From a virus (lineage: Duplodnaviria > Heunggongvirae > Uroviricota > Caudoviricetes), in IMG/VR virus record IMGVR_UViG_2529292981_000041: a stretch of 14,983 bases of DNA. One strand, given 5' to 3'. A program made the translations under genes and the position numbers. The notes below the pieces were generated by a model. That model was given only the letters and a program-made list of their open reading frames with translations. It was not told where the DNA came from and did no database searches. Below are positions 1 through 12,767 of this stretch, one piece after another. Numbering within the stretch: the first letter of the stretch is position 1; every line of letters starts with the position of its first letter.

Positions 1-165
1 ATGGCAAAGCCGCTCATCACGCTCAATGGCCTAAAAATCGTCATTATGTTGGGAATGCTGGTCATTATTCTCTGCGGTATCCGTTTTGCCGCCGAGATCA
101 TCGTGCCGTTTATTCTCGCATTATTTATTGCTGTTATATATAACTTATTTCACATAACACGTTGA
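1..165 (+). pseudogene. Truncated 5' fragment (54 codons) of an inner-membrane transporter gene, TqsA/YdgG-like (AI-2E family)
   Basis: ATG at 1; translation [45 protein letters not shown] is strongly hydrophobic and matches my memory of the TqsA N-terminus. The frame then runs into AT-rich sequence and stops at 163-165 (YNLFHITR*). Identity is from memory, not verified. Confidence 0.45.
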
Positions 166-246
166 TTTAATTAAATAATTTTCACCGCAAAAAGTGCCAA
201 AAATCGCAAAATGACTACACCAGTGACTACACCGTTCGGTGCACTG

Positions 247-276
247 TATGAAACAACGTGGAACAAATAGACACAA
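247..276 (-). promoter_or_regulatory. Three tandem 10-bp TTGTT-type repeats (minus strand: ttgtgtctat ttgttccacg ttgtttcata)
   Basis: The 15-mer aacaacgtggaacaa at 252-266 is identical to 7716-7730 and differs by one base from the reverse complement of 13684-13698. Confidence 0.35.
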
Positions 277-387
277 GAAATATACAGGCGGATCATCTTT
301 CCAGGGGGAAGCGCACCAATTCATGAGGGGCGTTAATGTCGATATGGGGATCCCCACCTACCGGAATTTTTTTCCGGTTAAACGTTA

Positions 388-498
388 ATCAGGCTGGTGG
401 GCTTTACCTGTTCGGTAGGTGTTATGATTATCGTAATACCTTTCCCCCAATGGGGTAAAAGCATCAACCGTAACGAAAGTCGTTATGGTTGCCACTGA
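388..498 (+). pseudogene. Degraded fragment resembling the C-terminal region of a large terminase, opposite orientation to the island terL
   Basis: The 18-mer atcaggctggtgggcttt at 388-405 is the exact reverse complement of 1519-1536 inside terL, where it encodes IRLVGF. The plus frame here reads IRLVGFTCSVGVMIIVIPFPQ, against terL IRLVGFDTWNATHLRTQLQGAGFEVEPFPQ, then stops at 496-498. Confidence 0.3.
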
Positions 499-607
499 TA
501 CCCCAAATTTGGGTATCACGAGTAAGCCCCAAAATCTGGGTGTTACTCTTACTACCCAAACTACGGGTAGTTTCCGTAGTTTCATGGTCGAGTTGCAGAT
601 CTGCAAC
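444..607. repeat. Cluster of short inverted repeats (CCCAAA..GGG type) plus a perfect 16-bp palindrome
   Basis: Imperfect 21-bp palindrome gataccccaaatttgggtatc (498-518); ccca-aaatc-tggg (about 528-540); ctaccc-aaactac-gggtag (about 552-570); perfect palindrome gttgcagatctgcaac at 592-607. Confidence 0.4.
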
Positions 608-863
608 TCCCCCATTAACCACAGGCGAATTTCCGCCTTCGGTCATTCCTTAATCATCTGCGTAATCATAATGATTATTCAGCAAGCGCAATTTTGCGCT
701 TTGCTTAAAGTTCAGCGAGTTACCGCGCCGACTTCCTCAAATTGAGGTTTCCGAAAATATCAGCGGGTTAGCGATTAAGCTGACCATTAATTAAACTGCG
801 AAAATGTCGTAGTTGTGAGGGGTGTAGCCAACCCATTTTTGGGCCGTCGGGAATATCAACCAG

Positions 864-1145
864 TTACCGCCGCAACCGCTCCGGCTTCTTCCAGTGGTAC
901 GTTATTTTCTCCTTCTCCCGATACATCTCCACGCGGCGACGGTAGGCCAGCAACTCAAGAACTCTGGTTCGTATGTTGCGCATATCCACGCCATTAAGTT
1001 CTATACCATCACGGCGCATCACCTCAGCAACAACACGCGCATAGTTTTCGGCTGTCACGCTGTCCGGCAGCGTGGCCTGTTCGTCAGCCTGCTGGCTGAT
1101 TCCGGCAACGCGGCGGATTAATCCCGTTATTTCGGCTTCTGTCAT
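864..1145 (-). CDS. Hypothetical protein, last gene of the packaging operon (93 aa from ATG at 1145; a GTG at 1169 would give 101 aa)
   Basis: ORF MTEAEITGLIRRVAGISQQADEQ... lies directly downstream of terL and overlaps its stop. No recognisable motif. Confidence 0.5.
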   Translation of the reverse strand: MTEAEITGLIRRVAGISQQADEQATLPDSVTAENYARVVAEVMRRDGIELNGVDMRNIRTRVLELLAYRRRVEMYREKEKITYHWKKPERLRR

Positions 1146-1158
1146 GCTGCTGACCTCA

Positions 1159-2820
1159 TTACACCCCACTAAATTCTTCCAGTTTCTGGCGGTGGCTGTC
1201 GCTTATATCAAAAGCAAAATCCTCATGCTCTGCCTGGAATGTACCAAACGCCATCAGCGCCGCCACGCTCGGGTCTATCTTGTTCGGTGATTTTTTCTTG
1301 TTCGGCTTGATATTGGCGTTCGCGTCACTCTGCATCACGACGTTACTCATCGACCAGGACAACACCGGATCGCCACGATGCACAATCACCCTGCGGTTAA
1401 CAAAAACTTCGAACGATTTCGCCGCCGGACTGAATCTGAGGTAGGTTTGCGGGAACGGCTCCACCTCAAAACCTGCCCCCTGTAATTGCGTTCTGAGATG
1501 CGTGGCGTTCCACGTATCAAAGCCCACCAGCCTGATATTAAATTTCTCCGCGTCCTGCATGATGTCATCTCTGATCCGGTCGTAATCAATGCAGTCGCCA
1601 GGCGTTGTGCGTATCCAGCCTGCTTTAGCCCACTGACGATAGATGGCGCGGTTTTTATTGGCGGGGTTCTGTAGCTGGAACTCCGGCAGATAATGACGGG
1701 AAACCAGCATAATGGTTTTACCTACCGGAAAGGCATAGCACACGCTGGAAATATCGCTTGTGGATGATAAATCCAGCCCCGCGTAACACTCCTGGCCGTG
1801 TAAATCTTCCTCTGTGAACGTTCCGGCACACTCAGCCCATGCGCCGTTACCCATCCACGGGGTAGCCCCCTGGCACCAGATATTAAATCGCTTTGTCATC
1901 ATCTCCACCCACTGCGACGGAATACCCCGCGCTTTCTGGATGGTTGAGGCCAGTTTTTCACGATCCACGGAAACATCAATATTAGGGTTCGCCTTTATCC
2001 ACATCGCCGGATCATCAACCTCGTTTTCGTCGTCCAGTTCGTAAATCAGTACAAAAATTGAATCGTTGACCTCTTCGCCGTCCAGGATCTGGCAGCAATA
2101 ATCATAGTGCTGCTTACAGGCTGAAACGACGTTACTGCCTGATGTGGTAATAGCAAATAACAGCCCTTCGGGACGTGCGCCCATCCCCAGCTCAAGCGCG
2201 GAATAAACGCCGTTATCGGGGTGCAAGTGGTATTCGTCCACGATGGAAAGGCTGGGGTTTGTTCCCTCGATGGTTGCCGCTTTTGCTGCCAGCGGCTTTA
2301 ACAGGCTGTTGCTTTTCGGGTGTATCACCTTATGCGCCTGAATATTCACCCGCCTGCGTAACGGTCGGGATAAAAGGCACATCTGACGCGCATCATCAAA
2401 GACGATCCGCGCCTGGTCACGGCTCACCGCTGCGGTGTAGATATCCTGCTGACCGTTCTCCATAATCAGAAACCAGTTAGCCAGAATCGCGGCGGTCGTT
2501 GATTTCGCATTTTTGCGCGGCACTTCGATAAAGGCGCTCGTATATTTGCGCCGTCCGGTGGCCTTAACCTTAAAGCCGAGAATGCACGCAAAGGCGAACT
2601 GCTGCCACGGCTCCAGCTCAATGGGTCTGCCACGCATCGGCCCTTTTACGTGCGGGCACACCCTGGAAAAGGCAATAAACCGATCCACAACCTCACGATC
2701 GAACGTGTAAAGGGGGCTTTTAAGGTCCGAAAAGTACCGTTTAACGGCCTGTTTCAGCCGTTTACAGGCCGGAATTTTGCCCGTTTTTACGTCTTCTGCG
2801 TACTTATTCCAGGCGGTCAA
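1159..2820 (-). CDS. terL: Terminase large subunit (Terminase_1-like), apparent TTG start
   Basis: 553-aa ORF with the terminase ATPase P-loop context FIEVPRKNAKSTTAAILANWF and a nuclease-type C-terminal half. The furthest in-frame start is TTG at 2818-2820, preceded by GAGGA. It overlaps the terS stop by 17 nt. Confidence 0.9.
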   Translation of the reverse strand: MTAWNKYAEDVKTGKIPACKRLKQAVKRYFSDLKSPLYTFDREVVDRFIAFSRVCPHVKGPMRGRPIELEPWQQFAFACILGFKVKATGRRKYTSAFIEVPRKNAKSTTAAILANWFLIMENGQQDIYTAAVSRDQARIVFDDARQMCLLSRPLRRRVNIQAHKVIHPKSNSLLKPLAAKAATIEGTNPSLSIVDEYHLHPDNGVYSALELGMGARPEGLLFAITTSGSNVVSACKQHYDYCCQILDGEEVNDSIFVLIYELDDENEVDDPAMWIKANPNIDVSVDREKLASTIQKARGIPSQWVEMMTKRFNIWCQGATPWMGNGAWAECAGTFTEEDLHGQECYAGLDLSSTSDISSVCYAFPVGKTIMLVSRHYLPEFQLQNPANKNRAIYRQWAKAGWIRTTPGDCIDYDRIRDDIMQDAEKFNIRLVGFDTWNATHLRTQLQGAGFEVEPFPQTYLRFSPAAKSFEVFVNRRVIVHRGDPVLSWSMSNVVMQSDANANIKPNKKKSPNKIDPSVAALMAFGTFQAEHEDFAFDISDSHRQKLEEFSGV

Positions 2821-3160
2821 GCTCGTCCTCTTCTTCTGTTTCCGGTGGATTTTTACGGCGGCTTATCGGGTCAAAACCGAGCAAGGAGGCCATTTTTATC
2901 ATCACTCTTTCCGCGTCGGATTTCGCGCTTAATGCGGGGTTTCTGCTCTCTCCGCCCTGACTGTTAACAATGCTGAACCCGCGCGCCGCAAGGTCTGCGA
3001 CGGCTTTCCGGTATATCGAGTAATTGACGCAATACAGTTCCAGATTGCTCCAGTCGGCGGGAGTCAGGTCACCCCGTTCCGCAAGCTGCCGCGATTTTTC
3101 CCGCCACTGCTTCACGGCGATATCATCCAGGTAGGCGGGGGCTTTCGGTGGTCTTGCCAT
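2804..3160 (-). CDS. terS: Terminase small subunit, P27 family
   Basis: 118-aa ORF starting MARPPKAP, the RPPK N-terminal signature of P27-family small terminases, with an acidic C-terminus; sits immediately upstream of terL. Confidence 0.8.
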   Translation of the reverse strand: MARPPKAPAYLDDIAVKQWREKSRQLAERGDLTPADWSNLELYCVNYSIYRKAVADLAARGFSIVNSQGGESRNPALSAKSDAERVMIKMASLLGFDPISRRKNPPETEEEDELDRLE

Positions 3161-3214
3161 ACTTATTTTTTCGCCAGATTATTTTTCAAAAAATTCCCGT
3201 GCATAAAAATTTGA

Positions 3215-3265
3215 GGAGGCGGTCGGTGCCCGGCGGGGTCGGGTTTGTCCTGAAAACGCCCCCCA
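3215..3265. other. Candidate cos region (GC-rich block between HNH and terS)
   Basis: ggaggcggtcggtgcccggcggggtcgggtttgtcc sits in the only sizeable non-coding gap of the packaging operon, about 60-100 nt upstream of the terS start. Placement is by analogy with HK97-like HNH/TerS/TerL cos systems. Confidence 0.25.
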
Positions 3266-3283
3266 CCCCGTCATACAGCCTCA

Positions 3284-3466
3284 TCAGCGATTGCGGAAAC
3301 ATTCCATAACCTCGCGGTCACGGTCGGTTAATCGCTTCGCTGTGATGCGTTCTGCGCGTCCTGACGCTTTATCTTTATGCCCTGTTTCCTGTGTCTTCCA
3401 TGCGTCACGCTGCCTTATAAGTCCACGGATAAGGCGGTTTTGTTCCCGCTCATTCATCAGCGTCAT
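3284..3466 (-). CDS. Possible small basic protein (60 aa) between HNH and terS
   Basis: ATG at 3464-3466, MTLMNEREQNRLIRGLIRQRDAWK...; Arg/Lys-rich; overlaps the HNH stop by a few codons. Could instead be non-coding sequence around cos. Confidence 0.25.
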   Translation of the reverse strand: MTLMNEREQNRLIRGLIRQRDAWKTQETGHKDKASGRAERITAKRLTDRDREVMECFRNR

Positions 3467-3890
3467 ACATCCAGTTATTGCGGTTAGCGGCCCGTTCTTC
3501 CTCTTCACGAAACCCACCTGCGGCACGCTTGCTTTTTGTTGCCGGATCAAGCCATTTCGTTTTCTGGTTATGGCACGCCTGGCACAATGGCTGATGGTTC
3601 CATTCGGGCCAGAAGAGAACATCATCACCGCCATTAATCGGGATAATGTGATCCACCACCACGGCGGGCGTATATATCCCCTTCTCAAGGCATCGCACGC
3701 ATAACGGGTTTTTACTCAGATACATGGCGCGGTATTTGTCCCACTGTCTGGAGTACCCACGCGCGCGGCGGTGTCCTCGTCTGGCATCCTCTGCACGCCA
3801 TGCCGCCCGCCTGTGCTCCTCACACTTGCCGGACTTCACGCGCCTGTTACAGCCTGGTTCTGTGCATCGTCTTAATGGTTGCCACGGCAT
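3450..3890 (-). CDS. HNH endonuclease (packaging-associated)
   Basis: 146-aa ORF with Cys pairs CTEPGCNRR and CVRC, conserved His/Asn spacing (VVVDHIIPINGG ... NHQPLCQACHNQK). Its ATG shares one base with the connector stop. Confidence 0.85.
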   Translation of the reverse strand: MPWQPLRRCTEPGCNRRVKSGKCEEHRRAAWRAEDARRGHRRARGYSRQWDKYRAMYLSKNPLCVRCLEKGIYTPAVVVDHIIPINGGDDVLFWPEWNHQPLCQACHNQKTKWLDPATKSKRAAGGFREEEERAANRNNWMYDADE

Positions 3891-4186
3891 CAGTACACCC
3901 CCACATCACGGTAAGCCGTCCAGAGTGCACCAATCGTCATGGGTACGCGTGTTTTTGCGTTATCCGCGACAATCTGGCGATTTTCATACAGGTGAGCGAT
4001 AAACATCATGCAGCCAATCTTTATGGCTGGCGTGAACGCCAGCCCGTCATCAAAGCGCCTGCCTATGTGTATCTGGCACGCCTCAAGCGATGCGGCGATG
4101 TATCCGCTGATTAACTGGTCTTCCTCGTCGCCATCGATGCGGCAATGGAGTTTCACTTCTTCCAGGGTGATAAGTTCTTCTGTCAT
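3890..4186 (-). CDS. gp6-like head-tail connector protein
   Basis: 98 aa, MTEELITLEEVKLHCRIDGDEEDQLISGYIAAS..., the typical N-terminal motif of phage gp6-like connector proteins. ATGA overlap with the upstream gene. Confidence 0.65.
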   Translation of the reverse strand: MTEELITLEEVKLHCRIDGDEEDQLISGYIAASLEACQIHIGRRFDDGLAFTPAIKIGCMMFIAHLYENRQIVADNAKTRVPMTIGALWTAYRDVGVY

Positions 4187-4521
4187 TTTTCCGCGCCCTC
4201 ACGACAAAGAATTTCAAGGCGTGTCCTGGCGGCATCCGGCAGCGGCTGCCCGATGATATTCAGTACACGCCCCGCCAGCGGCCCCGTATTGACCTTTATC
4301 CGGCTGGTGGCGTTGATGTCCTTCCTGTAGCGTATCCATATCCTTACCGTTCCAGTCGCCAGTTCTGCACCCGATGAAATGGCCTCCTTGCTGCTGATCA
4401 TGTTCACGCTTGCCCAGAGTGTGTGACCGTCCACCCACGTTTCGAGTATTTCGCCGGTTATATCCCTGGTCTGTTTCAGGGTCTGAATCGTTACCCTGTC
4501 ACGCAGTCGCCCTATGTTCAT
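4183..4521 (-). CDS. Head-closure / head-tail adaptor protein (start MNIGRL)
   Basis: ATG at 4519-4521 overlaps the portal TGA stop (ATGA). Product MNIGRLRDRVTIQTLKQTRDITGEILETWVDGHTLWASV... fits phage head-tail joining proteins. Confidence 0.65.
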   Translation of the reverse strand: MNIGRLRDRVTIQTLKQTRDITGEILETWVDGHTLWASVNMISSKEAISSGAELATGTVRIWIRYRKDINATSRIKVNTGPLAGRVLNIIGQPLPDAARTRLEILCREGAEK

Positions 4522-5729
4522 TCCGGTTTTTCTCCCTCGCTGATTTTTACTTCCTGTTTCCATGCCTGGCTGAACTCATCACCACCATCACGCGGGGACA
4601 GCCCTTCACGTTCGCGGGCTTCGTTCGGGCACATAACGCCGGATTTGATGCCGCGTTCATAGGTGGCAAAGCGTTCGCCAGGAGTGGCCCGTAACAGGTC
4701 CGCGCTGTCAAACTCCACCTGATACCGGATACCAGGTACAGGTGAGGCCACCAGCAGGGCGTTTTTTATCTGCTGCTCAAAGTTCGCCAGCCACGGGCGC
4801 ATCGTCATGGTGAGAAATGCGCGGCTTGCCTCGCTGAAATTGCTGTAGGTGCTGTTGCTGTATTCCTGCAAAAAAATCGGCGAGACGTTGAACATTCGGG
4901 CGATGTCTTCAATGGTGAAGCGACGGGAGGCCAGCCATTCAGCATCCTGATTACTCATGCCCAGCTGCTGATAGCTCATACCCCCTTCAAGGATGGGCGT
5001 TTTTCCGGCGTTTCTGGCCCCTTTGTAGCGTTCCAGTGCGGCTAATGCCTGTTTACCCTTCACGCCGTCCAGCCACTCGCCTGACGTGATAACCCCTGCC
5101 GCCATCATGCCATCACGCATCACGCTCGCGCCGTGGCGTTGTTGGGCCAGCCCAAGCCCCAGCGATTCGCGGCAGATGGTTACAGGTGAGCGCCCCATAA
5201 AACCGTCATCCGTGGAGTAACGAAGGTGGAGAACCTCCCACGGTAAATAGTTGCGGGTGTTTCCGGTGTAGGCGTCAGTGATGCAGTAGCGCCAGTTATG
5301 CTCACCTGTCTGCTCCACGTTCACCGACTGCGGCGGGTAAGGATGTAAAGCCACCGGAAAACCATCACGCCCCCACTGAATCACCGCATAAGCATTACCG
5401 TTTAACAGGCAGTGGCGGATCATCATTCGCTTAAACTGGTAGGGGGTTTGCCATGCGTTCGGGCGCTCGTTGAGGATGTGATCGACCGGATGAGAATCAA
5501 GCCACTCTCGGGCCTCCTTCCCCTTCTCATTGCGTACCAGGTACAGGTAACACGGCATGGTAGCCACCGCCTCAGAGATGACCGTGACGGCGTTCATGAC
5601 GGCGGGCAGTGATTCCGCTGTCCCCGATGATACGTACTCACCCGCCCCCGTGTTCGATGTGCCAGCCAGCGCCATAAACTCATCAAGCGTCATGCTGCGC
5701 TGCTCTTTTTTTCTTCTGAAAGGCCACAT
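4518..5729 (-). CDS. Portal protein, HK97 family
   Basis: 403-aa ORF with portal-type segments (LLNGNAYAVIQW, DIARMFNVSPIFL). Start is preceded by GGGGG and lies 1 nt after the protease stop. Confidence 0.9.
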   Translation of the reverse strand: MWPFRRKKEQRSMTLDEFMALAGTSNTGAGEYVSSGTAESLPAVMNAVTVISEAVATMPCYLYLVRNEKGKEAREWLDSHPVDHILNERPNAWQTPYQFKRMMIRHCLLNGNAYAVIQWGRDGFPVALHPYPPQSVNVEQTGEHNWRYCITDAYTGNTRNYLPWEVLHLRYSTDDGFMGRSPVTICRESLGLGLAQQRHGASVMRDGMMAAGVITSGEWLDGVKGKQALAALERYKGARNAGKTPILEGGMSYQQLGMSNQDAEWLASRRFTIEDIARMFNVSPIFLQEYSNSTYSNFSEASRAFLTMTMRPWLANFEQQIKNALLVASPVPGIRYQVEFDSADLLRATPGERFATYERGIKSGVMCPNEAREREGLSPRDGGDEFSQAWKQEVKISEGEKPE

Positions 5730-5730
5730 A

Positions 5731-6288
5731 TCACACCCCCGCTAAATCCGCCCACCAGCGGCGATTATCCGCACGAGGCATTTTTTCAGGGTGCTGCTCA
5801 TACAGGGAACGGCGGGCCAGCTCCACGCCAGAATCAGGGTAAGCCGGTACGGATGTCACGGTAATTTCGTACAGTTCCGCTATCAGTACAGTACGCACAC
5901 ATGGATCGACTGTCGTATCCCATACATCCTTACGGGAACGAAAGCCAAAGCTCATGCCCGAGATGTCACCACGTTTAACCAGTTCGATAACGTCCCGCCC
6001 TGTGCTGGTATCCGGTGGGATCAGTTCAAAACGTAACCCTGTGTCATCCTCTTCCAGTCTCAGCGTACCGGAACGGGTGCGCCCCAGTAACATGCTGTGG
6101 TCATGCTCATACAGGCCGCGAACGTCATTACCCACCGCAAGCCATTCAGTAAACGCCCCCCGCTGGAATTTTTCGTAAAACTCCCCCCATAGCAGCTCTG
6201 AAAGGTTATCCCAGCGAACAACGTAGCCTGTAAGCGTGTTGCTGCCGCTGGTGGTGATTTCCGATGACCGGATTTCCATACTCATCAT
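5731..6288 (-). CDS. Prohead maturation protease, HK97 family (S78-like)
   Basis: 185 aa; motifs GYVVRWDN, GLYEHDHSMLLGRT and ISGMSFGF are characteristic of HK97-type prohead proteases. Confidence 0.85.
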   Translation of the reverse strand: MMSMEIRSSEITTSGSNTLTGYVVRWDNLSELLWGEFYEKFQRGAFTEWLAVGNDVRGLYEHDHSMLLGRTRSGTLRLEEDDTGLRFELIPPDTSTGRDVIELVKRGDISGMSFGFRSRKDVWDTTVDPCVRTVLIAELYEITVTSVPAYPDSGVELARRSLYEQHPEKMPRADNRRWWADLAGV

Positions 6289-6311
6289 AATTTTTTCACC
6301 TGTAAAACAGA

Positions 6312-6333
6312 GAAGGGGCTTTTTAGCCCCTTC
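6312..6333 (-). terminator. Perfect 9-bp GC-rich hairpin 10 nt after the capsid gene stop (possible partial terminator)
   Basis: gaaggggct-tttt-agccccttc. On the minus strand it is followed by tctgtttta, then the protease start. Confidence 0.45.
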
Positions 6334-6342
6334 GGTGTGCTG

Positions 6343-7500
6343 TTAATCGTCGTCCTGCGGCAGTTCCAGAATCTTTATAGCGTTCGAATCCACCACGCCA
6401 CCGCCTAAATATTTCTGCGTGAAAATTTTGATAAAGCCCGGCTCTGTCAGGTTGTCCGGTCTGGTGCGCACGCCCGTTTCATGATCAACGATGTAATAAC
6501 CGCGTTTGAAGTCACCCAGGGCGATAACGTTATCCGGCATAAATTCCAGATACTCCACCGGAAGCCCCAGCAACGTATCAGGATCACCCGCCTGTAAACG
6601 GTCGCGCCAGATGTAATCGCCGTTCGCGTTCTTCACCTTCTGAAGTTTTGCCGCCGTCGTGGAGTTAACCACCCAGACCGCGTTTTTGCGGTATTTTTTA
6701 CGTAATGCAAATTTCAGGTCGATCAGCGGGTCCGCAGATGTCCACGCCAGAGATTCGGAAGGTTTAATTACCTGCAACGTACCAAAATCACGCTCTTTGT
6801 CGTTCTTCTCTGCACGGGGTACGGATAAAAAACCTTTTGCTTTTTTGTCACCGTCGCCCACAACCAGATCGCTTTCTTCGGTTTCCGTGAAGGTGTCGCC
6901 AATCTCACCCGTCAGCCATGAAAGGATGTCCACATCGGAAAAATCCACGATTTCCTGTGTGGTGCGCGGGTACGCATAGACCGGATACAGCTTAATGCTC
7001 ACCTCGTTAATCTGCGGGGTGCTGGTCTGTTCGCGTGCCTTACCCTCTTCACCGTGGTTAACGGTCGCACCGCCAGCGGAAACAAGCTGCTTAAACTCGT
7101 TGCTGCTGATTTTCTTCACGGTACAGATGCGGCGCATGGTGGATTCATCCGCCAGCATTCGCATGATTTCGGTGTTCAGCTCGGGGATAACGGTATAACC
7201 ACCATCAGCGGGAACGCCTGTACTTAATGCGCGGGTTTCACCTGTCAGGATGTAGTTGCGTAGTTCTGCGGGGTCAGTGGTCTGACTGCTTTTACCTGGC
7301 TTGCTGCGCTCTTCGTCTGCAATGGCTTCAAGGCGGGAAATGTCTTTATCGAGGGATTCAGCTTTAGCGCGTAATTCGTCAAATTTTGCGCCCTCAGCAT
7401 CGTTAAGACTGCGGTTTTCTTTTTCCGCGTTCTCCAGCATGTCGCGCATCTGATTTTTAATGGCGGTTTTCTGCTGGCGTAATTCGATTATTCTCGGCAT
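6343..7500 (-). CDS. Major capsid protein, HK97 fold, with N-terminal delta (scaffold-like) domain
   Basis: 385 aa; charged, coiled-coil-like first ~110 residues (LRQQKTAIKNQMRDMLENAEKENRSLNDAEGAKFDELRAKAESLDKDISRLEAIADEE) followed by an HK97 MCP-like body. Confidence 0.9.
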   Translation of the reverse strand: MPRIIELRQQKTAIKNQMRDMLENAEKENRSLNDAEGAKFDELRAKAESLDKDISRLEAIADEERSKPGKSSQTTDPAELRNYILTGETRALSTGVPADGGYTVIPELNTEIMRMLADESTMRRICTVKKISSNEFKQLVSAGGATVNHGEEGKAREQTSTPQINEVSIKLYPVYAYPRTTQEIVDFSDVDILSWLTGEIGDTFTETEESDLVVGDGDKKAKGFLSVPRAEKNDKERDFGTLQVIKPSESLAWTSADPLIDLKFALRKKYRKNAVWVVNSTTAAKLQKVKNANGDYIWRDRLQAGDPDTLLGLPVEYLEFMPDNVIALGDFKRGYYIVDHETGVRTRPDNLTEPGFIKIFTQKYLGGGVVDSNAIKILELPQDDD

Positions 7501-7537
7501 AAAAAAAGTCCTGGGGTTAAGTAAGGAACTCCAGGAC
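7501..7537 (-). terminator. Intrinsic-terminator-like hairpin plus 7-U tract ending at the capsid ATG; the only SD-like AGGA lies in the 3' arm
   Basis: Minus strand: gtcctggagtt-ccttactt-aaccccaggac then ttttttt then ATG. Stem is 7 bp, one mismatch, 3 bp. Confidence 0.45.
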
Positions 7538-7590
7538 GCGGCAAAAACTCAACCGTTTTTCATAAGGAAATCAGCAATCGCACCGTTCGT

Positions 7591-7638
7591 TTTCCCGCCT
7601 GGTAATGAATATTGGCGAGAACATTAACAGGCGGGAAA
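7591..7638. repeat. Long inverted repeat (about 16-bp stem, 14-nt loop) in the capsid-operon leader
   Basis: tttcccgcctg g taatg ... cattaa caggcgggaaa: 11 perfect pairs, one mismatch, 5 more pairs. Confidence 0.5.
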
Positions 7639-7710
7639 GTGGCCCCAGCGTCCTGGCACCACGGGCGAGAATAATCATGATTCAGTTCGGGTAAAATATG
7701 CCGATCCGCT

Positions 7711-7740
7711 CAGTGAACAACGTGGAACAACCACGAACAA
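7711..7740 (-). promoter_or_regulatory. Three tandem 10-bp repeats (ttgttcgtgg ttgttccacg ttgttcactg) over a weak sigma70-like promoter for the capsid operon
   Basis: Minus strand: TTGTTC, 16 nt, TATTTT just downstream of the repeats. The weak -35 with helical-turn-phased repeats suggests activator dependence. Confidence 0.4.
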
Positions 7741-7759
7741 ATAATTTACAAAACATGAC

Positions 7760-7781
7760 AAAAAGCCGGATTGCTCCGGCT
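7760..7781 (-). terminator. Rho-independent terminator after the PerC-like gene
   Basis: Minus strand: agccgga-gcaa-tccggct followed by ttttt, 7 nt after the stop at 7788-7790. Confidence 0.5.
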
Positions 7782-7787
7782 GTGTGA

Positions 7788-8060
7788 TTATCTGTCCTGG
7801 TAATTTCGCCATATTTCATCACCAGCACCATCCATACCCATTTCGGCATAAGTGCGATCGACCGCCTTTTTCAGGTCTCCGTAATTATCCGGCGGCTCCG
7901 GTGGCCTCTGTGCCTTCCTGGAACATTCCAGCCGTCGCATCGTGATGTGATGCCGTTCCTTGTCTGTCTCCACCAGTTGCATGACTTCACCCCATCGCGC
8001 CGACGCTCTCCGGTAAAAGCCTTTCGCCTCCAGTTCTTCCGCTATGCGGTCATGTACCAT
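7788..8060 (-). CDS. Small regulator, PerC/Pch-like (putative transcriptional activator)
   Basis: ATG at 8058-8060 with a GGGGA SD; 90 aa, MVHDRIAEELEAKGFYRRASARWGEVMQ... The N-terminal AEELE-KG-x-RRA-x-RW pattern matches my recollection of PerC-family proteins. Unverified. Confidence 0.5.
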   Translation of the reverse strand: MVHDRIAEELEAKGFYRRASARWGEVMQLVETDKERHHITMRRLECSRKAQRPPEPPDNYGDLKKAVDRTYAEMGMDGAGDEIWRNYQDR

Positions 8061-8072
8061 CGTCCCCACCCC

Positions 8073-8483
8073 TCAGAACGGAATATCATCACCGTAAGGG
8101 TCATCGCCTTCCGCTGGTGGCTGATTACCCTGTGTGCCTGTGGTCTTGCGTCTGTTCCCGCCAGGACGTGCCGCACGGGCACTGATTACGCTGTCTGCAA
8201 TAACCTGATACCCCCGCCGCGTTTCCCCGTTCTGTCCGGTTCACTGGCTTACCTGCATCGTGCCGGATACGCTGGCAACATCGCCTTTTTGATGTTTAGC
8301 CAGGAAATCGGCCTGTTTGCCAAATGCGATAACCGATAACCATAACGTCGCCTGTCCGTCATGTGCCTGGCTGCATGGCAGCGATACCGCCATACGCGCC
8401 AGCGTCATCGGTGTTCCCTTGCTGGTCTGTTTTACCTGCGGGTCGTCCACCAGCCGCCCGTAAGCCGCTATCTGTGCTGTCAT
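8073..8483 (-). pseudogene. ssb: SSB-like gene interrupted by an in-frame TGA (8241-8243) at the position of the conserved Trp
   Basis: N-terminal ORF 8241-8483 (MTAQIAAYGRLVDDPQVKQ...TLWLSVIAFGK...) has OB-fold SSB character. The same frame continues for 55 codons after the TGA and ends with the SSB tail signature ...PPAEGDDPYGDDIPF*. The TGA aligns with E. coli SSB Trp88 (RTRKWTDQ against VSQ*TGQ). Confidence 0.6.
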
Positions 8484-8731
8484 GCTGTCTGCTCTCCGGT
8501 TTTAACGTTGATGGTTGTTACCTGTTCCGCTTCGGCAATCTCCCGTTCTGTCAACGTGGCAAAGTTTGCCGCTGCTGTGGTCATGAATGCGCTTATCAGG
8601 TCGGGATGTTCCTTCGCGTATCCTTCCCCTACATGTCGGTCTATCGTTCTGATTGCCACCTTTAAGGCCAGCTCTGTTATATCTAACGCTTTATATTTCG
8701 GCTCTGTTCTGTCTCTGCGTGTTCTGGTCAT
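8480..8731 (-). CDS. Hypothetical protein (83 aa), translationally coupled to ssb
   Basis: ATG at 8729-8731 preceded by AGGTGG; ATGA overlap with the ssb start; MTRTRRDRTEPKYKALDITELALKVAIRTIDRH... Confidence 0.55.
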   Translation of the reverse strand: MTRTRRDRTEPKYKALDITELALKVAIRTIDRHVGEGYAKEHPDLISAFMTTAAANFATLTEREIAEAEQVTTINVKTGEQTA

Positions 8732-8764
8732 TTGCCACCTCAATTTATATATATATAGAAACAT

Positions 8765-9082
8765 GTGCGGGTTATGCGGGTTATTGGGTTATCTTAGCGT
8801 GCTAACCATTTTTTATCCTTTTATATCAGCATGTTGCAAAACGCCCTGTTTATTATTTGCTCACCACATAACCCGCAAAACGCTCAAAATAACCCGCAAA
8901 CGGGGTTTTTTCTGCGGGTTACGCATGACTGTCCGGTGTTACTTCAGTTATTCGCCTGCGGGTTATAATCGTGCTTTTGCGGGTTATAAATGCCCTTTTG
9001 CGGGTTACGTGCGGGTTATTGATTTCCTTTATATTCATGCACTTAATACACTTATACACAGGATAACCCGCATAACCCGCAA
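8765..9082. repeat. Iteron-type replication origin: at least 11 copies of the 9-mer GCGGGTTAT / ATAACCCGC, AT-rich tracts and a DnaA-box match
   Basis: Copies at 8767, 8776, (8785 degenerate), 8868, 8889, 8914, 8958, 8979, 9000, 9011, 9063 and 9072, in both orientations; three are spaced exactly 21 bp. (TA)6 at 8746-8757; TTATACACA at 9052-9060. Sits immediately downstream of the replication gene. Confidence 0.7.
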
Positions 9083-9103
9083 TTTTTTTCCTCACACAGG
9101 GGA

Positions 9104-11236
9104 TTAATCTTCATCATCAGGCTGGAACATCAGCACGTAAAAAACATGCTGCTTACCCCCAATCTTGCCCAGCGCCTTTTTTTTGTATCGGCGATCGCTT
9201 CCCTTCTCCAGCATTCCGGCAGCATCCAGGGCACGCGCAAAATGCGCCGGATTAAATCCCTTCGCTATCTCACTCTCAAACACGTGCGGGAACGTGTAAT
9301 AGCGCATCTCGTCATCTTCGTTGCGAATGCTCCCTTTTCTGTATCCGGCAAGCTCTTTAATCGGTAAATCACGCTCATCTGTATTGGGGTACGGAAGGTA
9401 GCGGCTAAACCCAAACGACGACAAAAACGCCTCAGCCTGTTCAACCATCTGTTTAAATTCCCTGTTACCTGTGCCGAACTCCTTCACCCAGGCATTAAAG
9501 TTATGCTGTATCGCGTCGCGGCATTCCTGCACGACCCAGCCAGTTACATGACCGGAAAGCACAAGCGCGGCCTCCAGTATGGCGAAACGTTCACCCACGC
9601 GGTGGACCTGCTCGCCGTAACTCTCCGGTATCAGGTTGCGCCACCGTTCGCGGCATTCCCTTACCGTGTCCTTTGCCTCCTGCTGGTGGCCTGCCAGCCA
9701 TTTAACCCACTCACGACCCGCCGCCCCGTGATTTGCTGTCCAGGCATCCTTTAACGCGTCAGCATGTTCCTTACCGTTGCTGTATTCGTGAAATTTCGTG
9801 GCTTTTTCCATCGGAACGTTAAGCAGTCGGACAAGCTGCCCCGCCTTAACTTTTATCCCCTCACTTTTGAGGAATGTCTCAACGTCCATTTCTCCGGTGC
9901 TGATTGCCACCGTTCGCCAGTGTTTGATCTCCCTGTTGCCGCCATCCTTCGCCCCCTGCAATTTCCCTGAACCGTTAAACAGCGTATAAGCAGACGTTGA
10001 CACTTCCCGCGCATTTCCGGCCTGGCCTATCTCATCCAGTGGTAAAAGCCCGTCATTATGGGCCTCGGCCTCATTGGCAATACCTAACGCCGTGCCGTAC
10101 CAGGTCAGCCGCTGCGCGTCCGGCTCTCCCCATAAACTTGATGCGATGTTCTGCGTGGTGGTCTTACCTGCCGATGACTGTTCGAAAAGATGCACCCCGA
10201 AGCCGTCAGCACCCACAAGGCCAATTAAAGGCGCTGCCAGTGACGTTGCCACACCCAGTATCATTGAGGCATTACCGCCAGCCAGCCGCGCCACGCTGTC
10301 GCGCCAGCCATCCGCCGTGCCCGCCACGGAATAACCGTTAATCGCGGCGCTTTTTCCGGTAAACAGGATCGGTTTTTCAGATTCACCAATGATCGAACCG
10401 TCCGGCATGATGTACGCGCCAAAATGCCAGCCCGTTGTTGTGCTTAACTGCCATTCCTCATGGCTTCCGCTTAACTGCATCCAGTCCGCCAGGATTGCCC
10501 TGTATTTGCCGTTGGTTGTCACGTTCAGCCCGTGATCTTTAAGTAACCGCCAGCCGTCACGGTCGCCGATACCACCACACGGGATCGCCATTGTGATGAC
10601 TTTATGGTTTGCGGTTTTTTTCCAGCGCATCACGCGGTAATGCTCTTTACCGATCGTCCCCGTTCCCAGTAGTTCAAGCGGAGAACATAACCACGTCTCA
10701 GGCCGGATAATTTCGCCTGACTGCTTATCCACTTTGGGCGTTACCCAGAAAACACCATCGGCGCGACTTTCAACGCGTGGCTTTAATTCGTCATCGCTAT
10801 GGCTTCCGGTATCTTTTTTCTTTACCGGAAACTCAATAACCAGACCATCAGAAAGATTCTGCCGCTCACGGGCCAGATATTCGCGCCAGTTCTCCACCTT
10901 CTGACCGTGCATTCCTTCGGGGTAAAAATTTGCGTCCTGAATATCTGCCGCCGCCAGCTTCTGACCAATCTTTTTGGTCTCCACCAAATCCAGTTCTCCG
11001 GCCTGGTACAGCCTTACGCGTTTTTTTCCATCCGGAACAATTTTCAGCGCATCAAGTTCGGCAAGCTGATTTGGCCCAAGCCACACAGGCGGAACATTAT
11101 CGCCGGATGCGGGGCCATCCTGCTCCTGCCATTGTTTCGCGTGCGACCAGGCATCACTACCCGCGAAAATAATTACCTCTGTGTCTTTGTGTTTTATTCC
11201 GCGTGGCTGTTTTTTTACGTTCGGTGCCAGTTTCAT
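9104..11236 (-). CDS. Replication initiator, primase/helicase-like P-loop protein (DUF927-like ATPase)
   Basis: 710-aa ORF with Walker-A-like HLFEQSSAGKTTTQN, adjacent to the iteron origin, analogous to P4 alpha or PICI Pri-Rep proteins. ATGA overlap with the upstream gene. Domain assignment is from memory. Confidence 0.75.
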   Translation of the reverse strand: MKLAPNVKKQPRGIKHKDTEVIIFAGSDAWSHAKQWQEQDGPASGDNVPPVWLGPNQLAELDALKIVPDGKKRVRLYQAGELDLVETKKIGQKLAAADIQDANFYPEGMHGQKVENWREYLARERQNLSDGLVIEFPVKKKDTGSHSDDELKPRVESRADGVFWVTPKVDKQSGEIIRPETWLCSPLELLGTGTIGKEHYRVMRWKKTANHKVITMAIPCGGIGDRDGWRLLKDHGLNVTTNGKYRAILADWMQLSGSHEEWQLSTTTGWHFGAYIMPDGSIIGESEKPILFTGKSAAINGYSVAGTADGWRDSVARLAGGNASMILGVATSLAAPLIGLVGADGFGVHLFEQSSAGKTTTQNIASSLWGEPDAQRLTWYGTALGIANEAEAHNDGLLPLDEIGQAGNAREVSTSAYTLFNGSGKLQGAKDGGNREIKHWRTVAISTGEMDVETFLKSEGIKVKAGQLVRLLNVPMEKATKFHEYSNGKEHADALKDAWTANHGAAGREWVKWLAGHQQEAKDTVRECRERWRNLIPESYGEQVHRVGERFAILEAALVLSGHVTGWVVQECRDAIQHNFNAWVKEFGTGNREFKQMVEQAEAFLSSFGFSRYLPYPNTDERDLPIKELAGYRKGSIRNEDDEMRYYTFPHVFESEIAKGFNPAHFARALDAAGMLEKGSDRRYKKKALGKIGGKQHVFYVLMFQPDDED

Positions 11237-11532
11237 TTCTTACCCCTGAATACGTTAAGCATCTTTTTTATTTCCTGAATATTGGCGCGTGCTTTCTCCC
11301 TGCTGGTTGGTTTACTGCGGGGCGCTGCCTGTACCAGAGAAAAATCACGATCGAACTGATAAACAGGCATAACGCAGTCATATTCGTAGCCTTCACGGCG
11401 GTAAGTGATGCGGCGTTCTCTCACGCTGATAATCGTCACGATGCCGCCGTACTGGTCGCGGTAAATATCCCCGCGCATGAATTTAGTGCGAGTTTTGCCG
11501 CTGTCAGTTAAGCCAGGATATTTAAGTTTCAT
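11233..11532 (-). CDS. Hypothetical protein (99 aa)
   Basis: ATG at 11530-11532; stop overlaps the primase start (ATGA); MKLKYPGLTDSGKTRTKFMRGDIYRDQYGG... Confidence 0.6.
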   Translation of the reverse strand: MKLKYPGLTDSGKTRTKFMRGDIYRDQYGGIVTIISVRERRITYRREGYEYDCVMPVYQFDRDFSLVQAAPRSKPTSREKARANIQEIKKMLNVFRGKK

Positions 11533-11537
11533 TATTT

Positions 11538-11798
11538 TTATTCCCCGATAGCGTGACCTGATAAGCCGTTAATCTTCTCTGATATGCTCTCTATTTTGCT
11601 GGTTGAACTATCCAGTAATTCAGAAACGGCTAATATTAATCTTGCAGTTGATTCATCGCGTTCATTATTCACCAGCGACTGAAGCCACATATTCATTACT
11701 TCGTTTGCTGCGTTGTTTAAAGATATTGCGCTGTTGGCAAGGCTTCTTAATTCACTGGTCGCCAGTTTATTATTTTTCATAGCGTTCGGCTCTCTCAT
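11538..11798 (-). CDS. Hypothetical small helical protein, AT-rich gene (start ATG 11798 or 11780)
   Basis: ORF ...MKNNKLATSELRSLANSAISLNNAANEVMNMWLQSL...; GC content visibly lower than flanking genes. Confidence 0.45.
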   Translation of the reverse strand: MREPNAMKNNKLATSELRSLANSAISLNNAANEVMNMWLQSLVNNERDESTARLILAVSELLDSSTSKIESISEKINGLSGHAIGE

Positions 11799-11961
11799 CA
11801 ATTAACCACAGCGCAACACTTCCTGACAGTTTTGCCAGAAGGCCAGCTAATGCGGATATATCACCATCATTTAATTTATCAGGGTATACCTCAAGAAGGC
11901 GGCAAATAATTTCTGTCTGGTGCGCACGTTCAGCGGCTTCGTGTAATGTAATTTCCTTCAT
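11770..11961 (-). CDS. Hypothetical protein (63 aa)
   Basis: ATG at 11959-11961 with a strong AGAGGTG SD; TAATG stop/start junction with the upstream gene; MKEITLHEAAERAHQTEIICRLLEVYPDKL... Confidence 0.5.
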   Translation of the reverse strand: MKEITLHEAAERAHQTEIICRLLEVYPDKLNDGDISALAGLLAKLSGSVALWLIDERAERYEK

Positions 11962-12146
11962 TAATGCACCTCTTTTAATTCATACACTGCTGAAATAATG
12001 ACTTGTGATAAGCCATATTCTGATGATTCGCTTCTCACCGCAGCAATAGCCGTCTGAACATTAACAGCCTTCACATTCTGAGCGATACCAATTGTGTGGC
12101 CTAGTGGGTTAACAGCGCTGGCAAATACACGGAAGGTTTTAAGCAT
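11961..12146 (-). CDS. Hypothetical protein (61 aa from ATG at 12146)
   Basis: ATG preceded by GGGGG; MLKTFRVFASAVNPLGHTIGIAQNVKAVNVQ...; AT-rich. Confidence 0.5.
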   Translation of the reverse strand: MLKTFRVFASAVNPLGHTIGIAQNVKAVNVQTAIAAVRSESSEYGLSQVIISAVYELKEVH

Positions 12147-12411
12147 GGCACACCCCCTGACGAATACGGGCGGCAAATACAGCAACACAACCTGACGGGC
12201 AACGGCTACGCGCTTCGCGTTCCGTCCAGGCGGTTACGTGGATGATTTGAGATTCTCCGGCACTCAGTGCCAGAAAACGCCACACAAAGGCCGTTTGTGT
12301 GTGTACAAGGTGTGGTATATGATTTACAGCAACCATAACGGCTCCTAGTTTACGTTGTTGGTTAGAAGCCCTGCGAGTGGTAACGACACTTGCGGGGCTT
12401 TGTCTTTTCAT
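12139..12411 (-). CDS. Possible first ORF of the leftward early operon (90 aa); could instead be an untranslated leader
   Basis: ATG at 12409-12411 with AAGGT SD, about 23 nt downstream of the predicted transcription start. Ala/Val/Arg-rich composition is not convincing. Confidence 0.3.
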   Translation of the reverse strand: MKRQSPASVVTTRRASNQQRKLGAVMVAVNHIPHLVHTQTAFVWRFLALSAGESQIIHVTAWTEREARSRCPSGCVAVFAARIRQGVCHA

Positions 12412-12428
12412 CGATTACCTTGATAAAG

Positions 12429-12509
12429 GTGTCAGCCACTATATTAGTAACGGGTGTCAGCCACGTCAATAGTGTTTTTCCGTTTTCTTGTGTGTATACT
12501 GTCAGCCAC
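12429..12509. promoter_or_regulatory. Three direct operator-like repeats (G/C)TGTCAGCCAC at 12429-12439, 12454-12464 and 12499-12509
   Basis: The 10-mer TGTCAGCCAC is exact in all three (copies 1 and 2 share the full 11-mer GTGTCAGCCAC). Copies 1 and 2 overlap the leftward promoter (transcription start and -35); copy 3 overlaps the -10 (TATACT, 12495-12500) of the rightward RHH gene. Confidence 0.5.
12441..12469 (-). promoter_or_regulatory. Near-consensus sigma70 promoter driving the leftward early/replication operon
   Basis: Minus strand: TTGACG (plus 12464-12469), 17-nt spacer, TAATAT (plus 12441-12446). Confidence 0.5.
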
Positions 12510-12530
12510 CTAATAACGAGGAAATCAGAT

Positions 12531-12710
12531 ATGGCAACAAAAGCAGTTAATGCAAAATCCAAAAAGCTTGAGGCTCGAGTACCACACGCAATAGCTGATG
12601 CTGTAGAAAATTTAAAGGAAGATGGCGAAAGTACAGGGCAATTTATCGTTTCGGCACTTGAAGGCGAGATCAAACGCCGCCAGCGCCGCAAGGCCAAAGA
12701 ATCAGAATAA
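12531..12710 (+). CDS. Ribbon-helix-helix-type DNA-binding protein, candidate repressor (59 aa)
   Basis: ATG at 12531 with GAGGA SD; MATKAVNAKSKKLEARVPHAIADAVENLKEDGESTGQFIVSALEGEIKRRQRRKAKESE has a strand-helix-helix arrangement typical of Arc/CopG-like proteins. Divergent from the main operon; followed by a plus-strand terminator. Confidence 0.5.
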   Translation: MATKAVNAKSKKLEARVPHAIADAVENLKEDGESTGQFIVSALEGEIKRRQRRKAKESE

Positions 12711-12767
12711 TCACTATCAGCGCCGTGGTGTGAGGTATTACGGCGCATTGCTATGCAGGACAACACA

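Follow-up and report, generated by a model that had tools for sequence, protein, structure and literature searches.

The window, a stretch of DNA of 14,983 nucleotides, is an EcCIEDL933-type capsid-forming PICI integrated in the E. coli tqsA gene, and the block of about 700 bp between the host gene and the last island gene is best explained, with a probability of roughly 60%, as two adjoining parts: an attachment-site arm (138-~290) and a patchwork (~290-863) similar to BIME and RIB elements that would act as a 3'-end insulator and in recombination. Direct support comes from the identity of the island, its junction, the arm repeats on both arms, the enrichment of palindromes, IHF boxes and Chi, and the conservation of hairpin structure despite sequence change; binding of Int and IHF, an RNA-level or insulating role and a role in recombination are predicted from the sequence.

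Genomes of E. coli O157:H7 match the window at 100%, and the island genes are located there between the two halves of tqsA; in the RefSeq annotation of the identical locus they comprise int, primase, capsid, portal, HNH, terS and terL. The hallmark genes of a capsid-forming PICI are present, namely int, an alpA-like regulator, primase, HK97-type capsid, protease, portal, connectors, HNH, TerS and TerL, while the absence of tail and lysis genes and the size of about 15 kb are both as expected of this class. The EcCIEDL933 family of capsid-forming PICIs has been described (10.1101/2022.09.08.507074), and positions 852-14980 of the window are 95-97% identical to EcCIEDL933 (OI-51 / CP-933C), which is 15.4 kb long against about 15.0 kb for the present island. 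The far end of the island encodes a 409-aa tyrosine-type recombinase, 92% identical to the EcCIEDL933 integrase. A blastn search of 50,697 phage records returned no match to 166-860.

The initial annotation began the non-coding block at 166, a boundary that had to be moved: the last host base is 137, island DNA begins at 138, and 138-165 extends the truncated tqsA reading frame by chance. The true att core, which the same annotation proposed to define by comparison with the uninterrupted host locus, is the 9-mer listed below. A second copy of this core is found at the other junction (L001 30171-30179), joining window 1-137 to L001 30180 onward restores an intact tqsA, and 5173 of 5426 E. coli genomes contain the rejoined gene without interruption. 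The features of this end of the island are as follows.

129-137, no strand assigned: att core TGCTGTTAT, with the host/island junction at 137/138
155-167, minus strand: exact IHF consensus AATCAACGTGTTA, 18 nt away from the core and inside the interval that separates it from the arm repeats
195-285, plus strand: arm cassette, two copies of TGACTACACC (212-221 and 224-233), then GAAACAACG / GGAACAA repeats
821-830, minus strand: TGGCTACACC, an inverted copy of the arm repeat with one mismatch, beside the last hairpin

The organisation of positions 138-290 supports their assignment, on sequence grounds, to the integrase-distal arm of the island attachment site, and the att-arm reading offered earlier was strengthened by two observations: the TGACTACACC pair recurs on the integrase-proximal arm, and an exact IHF consensus lies between the pair and the core. 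The elements of an attachment-site arm are present, including a core at both junctions, an adjoining integrase, repeats on both arms and an intervening IHF site. The previously reported direct repeats do occur exactly twice, and the repeats of the cassette are putative arm-type integrase binding sites. The cassette, which is alignable over about 85 nt, has a second, identically oriented copy on the integrase-proximal arm (L001 30017-30095), where the TGACTACACC pair occupies L001 30021-30042 and about 60 nt of flanking sequence recurs as well. Other elements share this layout: PICIs at phoQ and thiM, an E. coli PICI that exists as a circular episome, and a capsid-forming PICI of Klebsiella. 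EcCIEDL933 carries an equivalent IHF site in the same place (L176 19578-19590); on the integrase-proximal arm, reading of the sequence revealed only a one-mismatch IHF site. In two islands with 92%-identical integrases the arm repeat reads TGAC... in one and TAAC... in the other, and about half of the differences between these integrases fall within the first 60 residues. The inverted copy TGGCTACACC is kept in related islands next to differing hairpins. IHF and integrase, acting on the cassettes of both arms, would fold the DNA into the integration/excision recombination complex.

The remainder, 290-863, is by its sequence a tail of mosaic build that follows the minus-strand packaging operon (capsid ... 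terL, then the 93-aa gene) at its 3' end. The view that the block contains no convincing ORF agrees with the RefSeq annotation of a 100%-identical genome, in which the interval from the tqsA fragment to the 93-aa gene contains no CDS. None of the eight small ORFs of the region matched a Pfam family, and their sole PHROG match was marginal and to a family of unknown function (E=0.004). In a few genomes the annotation includes a 52-aa ORF running across module M2 (464-622, minus strand); it was rejected as a gene, several frames being open at once and the differences between variants being mostly non-synonymous. A search for tRNA and tmRNA genes found none. The features of the tail are listed below.

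345-356, no strand assigned: 12-bp perfect palindrome TGGGGATCCCCA
360-407, plus strand: near-invariant block with hairpin ACCGGAA-T5-TTCCGGT (360-378), GTTAA repeats, a near-IHF site (387-399) and Chi GCTGGTGG (393-400)
445-489, no strand assigned: palindrome CCCCA-A-TGGGG (445-455) and hairpin ACCGTAACGA-AAG-TCGTTATGGT (467-489), end of module M1
492-614, no strand assigned: module M2, a 123-bp hairpin module with GATACCC..GGGTATC, CCCA..TGGG, CTACCC..GGGTAG and the palindrome at 590-609
618-643, minus strand: GC-rich hairpin E (ACCGAAGGCGGAAATTCGCCTGTGGT on the minus strand), found by folding
663-677, no strand assigned: palindrome TAATCAT-A-ATGATTA
684-722, plus strand: Unit 1, palindrome AAGCGCAATTTTGCGCTT (684-701) and degenerate box AAGTTCAGCGAGTTA (708-722)
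735-770, plus strand: Unit 2, palindrome CCTCAAATTGAGG (735-747) and exact IHF-consensus box TATCAGCGGGTTA (758-770)
832-866, plus strand: Unit 3, palindrome CCCA-TTTT-TGGG (832-843) and exact IHF-consensus box TATCAACCAGTTA (854-866)
864-1145, minus strand: last island gene, 93 aa, PHROG 1561, function unknown, whose 3' end supplies the repeated unit

The density of palindromes, the main observation of the initial annotation, is far above expectation: 25 perfect inverted repeats (13 distinct; arm of at least 6, loop of at most 9) were counted against 2.2±1.8 in 500 dinucleotide shuffles, with a shuffle maximum of 11, and every other 726-nt tile of the window contains 0-6. The palindrome described as 16 bp long is indeed perfect, but it measures 20 bp (GAGTTGCAGATCTGCAACTC, 590-609). 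The series of CCCAAA..GGG inverted repeats was found at 496-518/502-513, 528-540 and 551-571, spaced by 26-27 nt, with similar repeats at 445-455, 735-747 and 832-843, and the palindrome at 663-677 is present as reported. Module M1 covers 156-493 and has a sharp end at 493 in many islands. Folding z-scores for 440-680 are -9.0 and -9.8 on the two strands; in sliding-window folding the longest run of strongly structured tiles in the window is 376-750, which also includes the lowest single-tile z-score (-6.2), and most related terminal regions fold at z of -4 to -8. In islands of the L002/L177 type hairpin E comes after M2, lies on the sense strand, is followed by a U-rich tail and scores as terminator-like; in the PICI episome hairpin E with its tail has such a score, and canonical terminators could be read at the equivalent place in the Klebsiella island. 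The tail of the present island has only one weak terminator-like site, because most of its hairpins lack U-tracts, and this counts against the preferred explanation.

The three units between 684 and 866 each combine a palindrome with a copy of the stop codon, the last codons and the next ~13 nt of the 93-aa gene, the IHF box of Unit 3 overlapping the stop codon itself. Every IHF box has a palindrome before it, and the units, about 48 nt long, recur at a spacing of 48 nt. A hairpin located about 17-21 nt after the stop codon (offsets taken by reading) is kept in 17 of 20 distinct versions, while its stems belong to at least 6 unrelated sequences. The window contains 6 exact matches to the IHF consensus WATCARNNNNTTR against 0.83 expected, 3 of them in 138-866, and at the EDL933 locus 7 of 11 exact matches fall within the terminal 850 bp. 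In 45 distinct terminal regions one strand has 86 IHF sites and the other 32, where 1.2 would be expected on each, whereas the adjoining coding DNA has 0 and 1 against 3.4 expected. Since the boxes are paralogous copies, their agreement with the consensus is partly inherited and not independently selected. All unit locations inspected are ends of satellite islands, with 1-6 per genome. The AlphaFold2 model of the 93-aa protein consists of three helices at low confidence (mean pLDDT 62.6), and no relative was found in the PDB. Its identification as RgdR was rejected, RgdR being a 99-aa DUF4222 protein with RGD at residues 20-22. In the search for cross-genus relatives of the gene the genome scan gave just one locus and the matches listed by the protein search were all close E. 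coli relatives, and for this reason the covariation tests are weak.

The near-invariant block at 360-407 contains the 18-nt terL identity behind the reading of a terminase-like remnant. Its core TTTTTTTCCGGTTAA...TTAATCAG...GGTGGG.TTTAC is kept in 26 of 26 distinct variants while the flanks diverge, and its Chi is intact in 24 of the 26. In terminal regions Chi occurs 47 times on the plus strand versus 7 on the minus strand.

An inverted relic of terL or of an older related element, as initially proposed, is very unlikely to account for this block. The translation IRLVGF...PFPQ can be read on the strand opposite to terL as reported, recurring with different spacing, and 388-405 (ATCAGGCTGGTGGGCTTT) is identical to the complementary strand of 1519-1536 within terL, an 18-nt match expected about 3e-4 times in the search space by a simple count. 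But this identity consists of Chi plus its flanks, drops abruptly outside the 18 nt where a pseudogene would be expected to decay evenly, and has a third, 15-nt copy out of frame at 12949-12963; there is also no colinear similarity to terL at the protein level, so that homology with the terminase is not upheld. The best tblastn match (E=0.042) is an unrelated, non-colinear one of 24 aa, the 30-aa stretch with IRLVGF gives E=0.23, a search with terL of about 50 related terminal regions was empty at E<=1, and the 45-nt block around the identity is invariant in classical PICIs without any terL. What survives of the proposed scar of an earlier element is that the units at 684-866 do repeat the 3' end of the 93-aa gene and that the block is a mosaic common to other PICIs; its terminase component does not. 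Neutral filler, that is, decaying leftovers kept solely to provide the minimum genome length for cos packaging into a small capsid, is a very improbable explanation too. It would agree with the mosaic content and dispensable modules, with an island length close to that of EcCIEDL933 and with the short equivalent gap in the Klebsiella island, yet neutral decay is not expected to leave a fixed-position hairpin of changing sequence, a module M2 conserved above gene level, or enrichment on one strand of the IHF consensus (~70-fold) and Chi (~40-fold). That the region is the DNA packaging site (cos or pac) of the island is the least probable of all the readings considered: it adjoins the terminase genes, is rich in IHF boxes like lambda cosB, and is flanked by Chi sites oriented towards a point between ~400 and 1500, but the lambda-type cosN GGGCGGCGACCT is absent at up to 3 mismatches, 3-mismatch matches occurring at chance rate and none of them in the region, and the exact cosN sites of one classical PICI lie upstream of the 93-aa gene, outside the tail. 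In HK97-type systems cos is located between the HNH gene and terS. Here this gap (3161-3283) is GC-rich, 123 nt long and a candidate cos, whereas terL lies upstream of the region; the HNH-terS gap is also where a related, virion-derived record of 16.5 kb is linearised, and for each tail module there is a capsid-forming PICI that lacks it. That the replication initiator has a second binding region here, comparable to crr of the satellite phage P4, seems highly improbable as well. One exact origin iteron core, GCGGGTTA, is found at 763-770, and one island (L016) has an origin-like fragment, iterons with an AT-rich stretch, between two copies of M2. The true origin, with 11 iterons (TGCGGGTTAT), is nevertheless at 8740-9090; the single 8-mer in the region, which falls short of a PICI replication origin, is weak evidence (~0.02 expected) and forms the variable middle of an IHF-consensus box, and in a related PICI a cloned pri-ori segment is sufficient for replication on its own (PMC6092414).

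Module M2 bears on a further alternative, in which M2 and the neighbouring hairpins would encode a folded regulatory RNA, derived for instance from the packaging-operon 3' UTR, with targets among island, helper-phage or host transcripts. In islands where the adjacent 93-aa gene reaches just 81-85% identity, M2 reaches 92-95%; three kinds of left flank and five kinds of right flank are found around it, and at times it is present in two copies. Conservation above that of the adjoining gene, the extreme folding on both strands, the position of M2 in L002/L177-type islands between the last gene and the sense-strand terminator-like hairpin, and a hairpin 1 whose stem is kept while its loop is hypervariable, with a few compensatory changes, all speak for an RNA. 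Against it, the Rfam 15 covariance models gave no match at E<=1 over 1-1300 or at E<=0.1 over the whole window, the promoter scan had no site adjoining M2, its single promoter-like match (268-296, plus strand) being ~200 nt upstream, the perfect palindromes are equally compatible with DNA-level sites, and many capsid-forming PICIs, EcCIEDL933 included, lack M2. This reading is unlikely, and the region is neither a gene, a cos site nor an Rfam RNA. The idea that M2 marks a cargo hotspot was rejected on reading, most of the large ORFs beside M2 in other loci resembling flanking prophage genes, integrases or a primase; an Abi_C-domain gene in the tail region of one lineage is the only real cargo.

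Under the preferred reading of an attachment-site arm with an adjoining insulator and recombination patchwork, the tail hairpins would end or stabilise the packaging-operon transcript, insulate the downstream host genes when the island is integrated, and insulate attP and int once it is excised, since these are then directly downstream on the same strand. The IHF boxes may bend the DNA, and the repeated units and Chi may provide short patches of homology for the exchange of segments among PICIs, and this would account for the mosaic structure, the differing number of units and the cargo genes found occasionally. Several observations count against this explanation: each tail module is dispensable in some related island, the Klebsiella island has just 336 nt from its last gene to int, the high conservation of M2 receives no specific explanation, and covariation in M2 is thin, with a few events in 29 variants. 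A more speculative and doubtful possibility is that M2, the Chi block and the palindrome-plus-IHF-box units constitute an undescribed PICI-specific cis-acting element. Such an element might control read-through of the packaging operon across attP into int after excision, by 3'-UTR RNA or by DNA architecture, as a retroregulation-like switch comparable in logic to lambda sib, or it might shield the first-exposed DNA end from RecBCD.

Capsid-forming PICIs are a widespread and recently recognised class of satellites whose genes have been dissected and whose cis-acting DNA has not; the publications consulted contain no description of the terminal non-coding region of EcCIEDL933. For an EcCIEDL933-type island this analysis defines the true att core and the way its arms are organised, distinguishes the att arm from a large hairpin- and IHF-box-rich tail that is common to many E. 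coli PICIs in shuffled form, and corrects the appealing but wrong reading of a dead terminase. As concrete experimental targets it offers the arm cassette, the invariant block with Chi, M2 and the 48-nt units. If the tail is only an insulator and recombination patchwork, the result is a useful annotation and not new biology; if it is a cis-acting element, the 123-bp M2 would add a conserved functional element to those known from E. coli phage satellites.

Among known systems, the attP arms of lambda/P4-type tyrosine integrases resemble 138-~290 in the core duplicated at the junctions, the integrase gene at one end, the pair of 10-bp direct repeats, different from the core, on each arm, and the IHF consensus between core and arm repeats. 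They differ in that here the same ~85-nt cassette is present in the same orientation on both arms, and such arms account for just ~150 of the 700 bp, with Int and IHF sites that are predicted. Exact Chi in the invariant block and the orientation bias across the island ends recall Chi (GCTGGTGG) as a regulator of RecBCD, although over the whole island its orientations are balanced (5 plus and 6 minus) and its role here is putative. BIMEs are known as 3'-end terminators, mRNA stabilisers, topological insulators and IHF binders (PMC3333891), and the BIME-1 / RIB-RIP elements of E. coli described in the same work share with the tail the alternation of palindromes and IHF-consensus sites at the 3' end of a transcription unit, the mosaic build and a copy number varying between loci. 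Unlike these, the island palindromes are not REP sequences (none matched a Y-type REP consensus at up to 3 mismatches) and vary from unit to unit, and the units occupy 1-6 places per genome and not hundreds of dispersed sites. The closest counterpart is the terminal non-coding region of EcCIEDL933 itself, which lies in the same position after the same 93-aa gene and has an M1 arm module 90% identical to the present one and the same palindrome-plus-box units, but is situated between roxA and phoQ, lacks M2 and carries 7 units versus 3 here.

The window is 100% identical to E. coli O157:H7 chromosomes, in which tqsA is interrupted by an element of about 15 kb with all genes on one strand. The element encodes a tyrosine integrase, an AlpA-like regulator, a DUF4222 protein, a DUF927 primase and a PerC-like regulator, together with an HK97-type capsid protein, a protease, a portal, two connectors, HNH, TerS (P27 family) and TerL; the final gene encodes a 93-aa hypothetical protein. 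Positions 852-14980 are 95-97% identical to an island that strain EDL933 carries between roxA and phoQ. Based on strain, size and gene content, this island, OI-51/CP-933C, is taken to be EcCIEDL933 (10.1101/2022.09.08.507074; PMC3378721), the prototype of capsid-forming PICIs, a kind of phage satellite island (10.1101/2022.09.08.507074). The 99-aa DUF4222 protein (11233-11532, minus strand) carries D10 and RGD at residues 20-22, which identifies it as a homologue of RgdR, the type III secretion regulator of OI-51 (PMC3378721). In an identical RefSeq genome the SSB protein gene (8073-8483, minus strand) has an internal stop and an annotation as a pseudogene. The intergenic stretch 7576-7725, upstream of the major capsid gene, is strongly structured (z = -5.4).

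Features of the non-coding left end
1-137: host sequence, tqsA 5' end
138 to about 290: att arm
212-221 and 224-233: direct repeat TGACTACACC, two copies, in the att arm
156-493: module M1, 76-91% identical in many islands
492-614: module M2, 92-95% identical in islands whose adjacent 93-aa gene is 81-85% identical
about 502, 528 and 555: CCCAAA..GGG repeats
663-677: 15-bp palindrome
615-825: variable segment
826-863: gene-proximal piece, frequently joined straight to M2
864-1145 (minus strand): 93-aa gene

The 9-mer TGCTGTTAT is found at both junctions, at 129-137 and at 30171-30179 of the locus carrying the integrase-side junction (L001). Joining window 1-137 to L001 from 30180 onward restores an intact tqsA reading frame, and 5173 of 5426 complete E. 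coli genomes contain the rejoined sequence without interruption, some at 100% identity. Therefore the island begins at 138 and not at 166. The whole of 138-863 is island DNA missing from island-free strains, and not ordinary host intergenic sequence, as had been considered for 166-860.

The TGACTACACC pair and about 60 nt on its 3' side, which include GAAACAACG and GGAACAA repeats, are found again beside the integrase gene (L001 30017-30095), in unchanged orientation, and an exact IHF consensus at 155-167 lies between the core and this cassette. The same layout is seen in PICIs at phoQ and at thiM, those at thiM having TGACCACAC repeats, and in a capsid-forming PICI of Klebsiella, whose pairs are TGTATAAACA. 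It is also present in a circular PICI of 10.8 kb that was deposited as a "plasmid"; here the two cassettes lie on either side of the core region, immediately upstream of int. EcCIEDL933 has the IHF consensus at the equivalent position; its arm repeat, TAACTACACC, differs from TGACTACACC by one base, and its integrase is 92% identical to that of the window island, with about half of the differences within the first 60 residues. The two integrases (genes at 13766-14983, island in tqsA, and at 4330-5559 of the EDL933 roxA-phoQ locus) nevertheless use different chromosomal sites. The lambda-type attP combines arm-type integrase sites with IHF sites, and by analogy 138 to about 290 is predicted to contain both. 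The att arm suggested initially is supported.

The tail, from about 290 to 863, was divided into modules by BLAST against 170 related loci, among which it proved to be a mosaic with sharp module borders. Three different sequences adjoin M2 on the left and five on the right; M2 is sometimes present in two copies around an origin-like iteron fragment, and every tail module is missing from some relative. In one capsid-forming PICI (L016, 1060-1380) two 123-bp M2 copies surround a fragment with the iterons and AT-rich stretch of window 8744-8905, and a 79-aa ORF ends in the same box-plus-hairpin unit as the window units. A blastn search of 50,697 phage records with 166-860 gave no match for any part. 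Regarding relatives, NZ_CP148328.1 (10.79 kb), catalogued as an E. coli plasmid, is a classical PICI in its excised, circular form with the order int ... 93-aa gene, tail, attP, and LR881103.1, filed as phage vB_KppS-Ant, is a Klebsiella capsid-forming PICI in which a 765-aa tape-measure-like gene (2036-4333) separates terL from a truncated 93-aa gene homologue.

All sequence features initially listed for 166-860 are present, the supposed 16-bp perfect palindrome being in fact one of 20 bp (590-609). Palindrome density far exceeds chance: perfect inverted repeats number 25 (13 distinct), whereas 500 dinucleotide shuffles gave 2.2±1.8 and the window's other 726-nt tiles have 0-6. Folding z-scores for 440-680 are -9.0 and -9.8 on the two strands, and 376-750 contains both the longest strongly structured tile run in the window and its lowest single z-score (-6.2). 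The identical genome has no annotated CDS here, in agreement with the reported lack of a convincing ORF; none of the small ORFs has a Pfam match, and PHROG gives them a single marginal match, of unknown function. A 52-aa ORF annotated in a few genomes sits in a segment open in several frames simultaneously, and its variants differ mainly non-synonymously. Rfam RNA and tRNA searches of the region found none.

Within 684-866, a unit of palindrome, about 8 nt and a 15-nt box is present in three copies, the last of which overlaps the 93-aa gene's stop codon. In EcCIEDL933 the unit occurs seven times, with a recurring spacing of 48 nt. The box is the IHF consensus WATCARNNNNTTR.

Exact IHF consensus matches
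Whole window: 6, of which 3 in 138-866; expected 0.83, 6 reached in 0 of 200 shuffles
EDL933 locus: 11, of which 7 in the terminal 850 bp; expected 1.7
45 distinct island ends: 86 and 32 on the two strands; expected 1.2 per strand
Adjacent coding DNA: 0 and 1; expected 3.4 per strand

The palindromes vary between units. A hairpin about 17-21 nt past the stop codon is kept in 17 of 20 distinct versions with at least six unrelated stem sequences, indicating that structure rather than sequence is conserved, and most related island ends fold well beyond shuffles.

Several other readings of the region were considered. The inverted terminase remnant proposed initially corresponds to a real match, 388-405 (ATCAGGCTGGTGGGCTTT) being the exact reverse complement of 1519-1536 within terL. 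This 18-nt identity includes the Chi site GCTGGTGG (393-400), a third, 15-nt copy lies out of frame at 12949-12963, and the 18-mer belongs to a 45-nt block invariant across 26 variants, including classical PICIs without terL. Protein-level similarity to terL here reached E=0.23 over 30 aa with IRLVGF, the best terL hit (E=0.042) was unrelated and non-colinear, and a terL search of about 50 related island ends gave no match at E<=1. For these reasons the match is no evidence of a dead gene; the suggested scar of an older element is supported in part, by the repeated units at 684-866. The 15-mer ATCAGGCTGGTGGGC occurs three times (388, and as reverse complement at 1519-1536 and 12949-12963), for which Chi alone is an insufficient explanation. 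Chi sites number 11 in the window (5 plus, 6 minus; 0.5 expected) and are strongly strand-biased across island ends (47 vs 7), with the opposite bias in adjacent packaging genes (70 vs 6), to which codon usage may contribute.

As a cos site, the tail lacks any cosN-like sequence, and classical PICIs have an exact lambda cosN elsewhere. In HK97-type HNH/TerS/TerL systems, cos is expected between the HNH gene and terS. The likely cos site is the GC-rich 123-nt gap at 3161-3283 (minus strand), with terS on one side and, on the other, the 60-aa gene that follows HNH; the related 16.5-kb virion-derived record LR881103 is linearised at its equivalent. Nor is the tail the replication origin. This is found at 8740-9090, just 3' of the primase gene, where 11 iterons, copies of TGCGGGTTAT, are grouped in direct and in inverted orientation about an AT-rich stretch, with an exact IHF consensus (8824-8836) in its centre. 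The tail palindromes do not match the REP consensus.

In the excised circular form, the tail stands directly between the last gene of the packaging operon and attP plus int, all on the same strand. A Klebsiella relative has canonical terminators at the equivalent place, as read from its sequence, and in E. coli islands of the L002/NZ_CP148328.1 type M2 is followed by a GC-rich hairpin of 11 bp that has a U-rich tail; the window island's own copy has one weak terminator-like site only. Together, the position, the Klebsiella terminators and the hairpin suggest that the tail is probably a 3'-end insulator and stabiliser zone, which IHF would also bend. The repeated units and Chi could provide short homology patches, which would fit the mosaicism, the varying number of units and the occasional cargo gene. 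Such a gene, for an Abi_C-domain protein, is found in one lineage; in a PICI inside capsid gene E of a lambdoid prophage (L123, 4150-6550) it lies on the opposite strand between the att arm and M2. We infer each of these steps, none of which accounts for the strong conservation of M2.

This non-coding end, although not described before, can be regarded as an unsurprising cis-acting end of a known satellite family. In BIME-1/RIB elements, which lie at the 3' ends of transcription units, palindromic units are combined with a linker that binds IHF; the elements terminate transcription, stabilise mRNA and serve as topological insulators (PMC3333891). Although the tail is not a member of this group, since it has neither the REP consensus nor genome-wide dispersal, BIME-1/RIB is its closest functional parallel, sharing palindromic units with an IHF box at the 3' end of a transcription unit.
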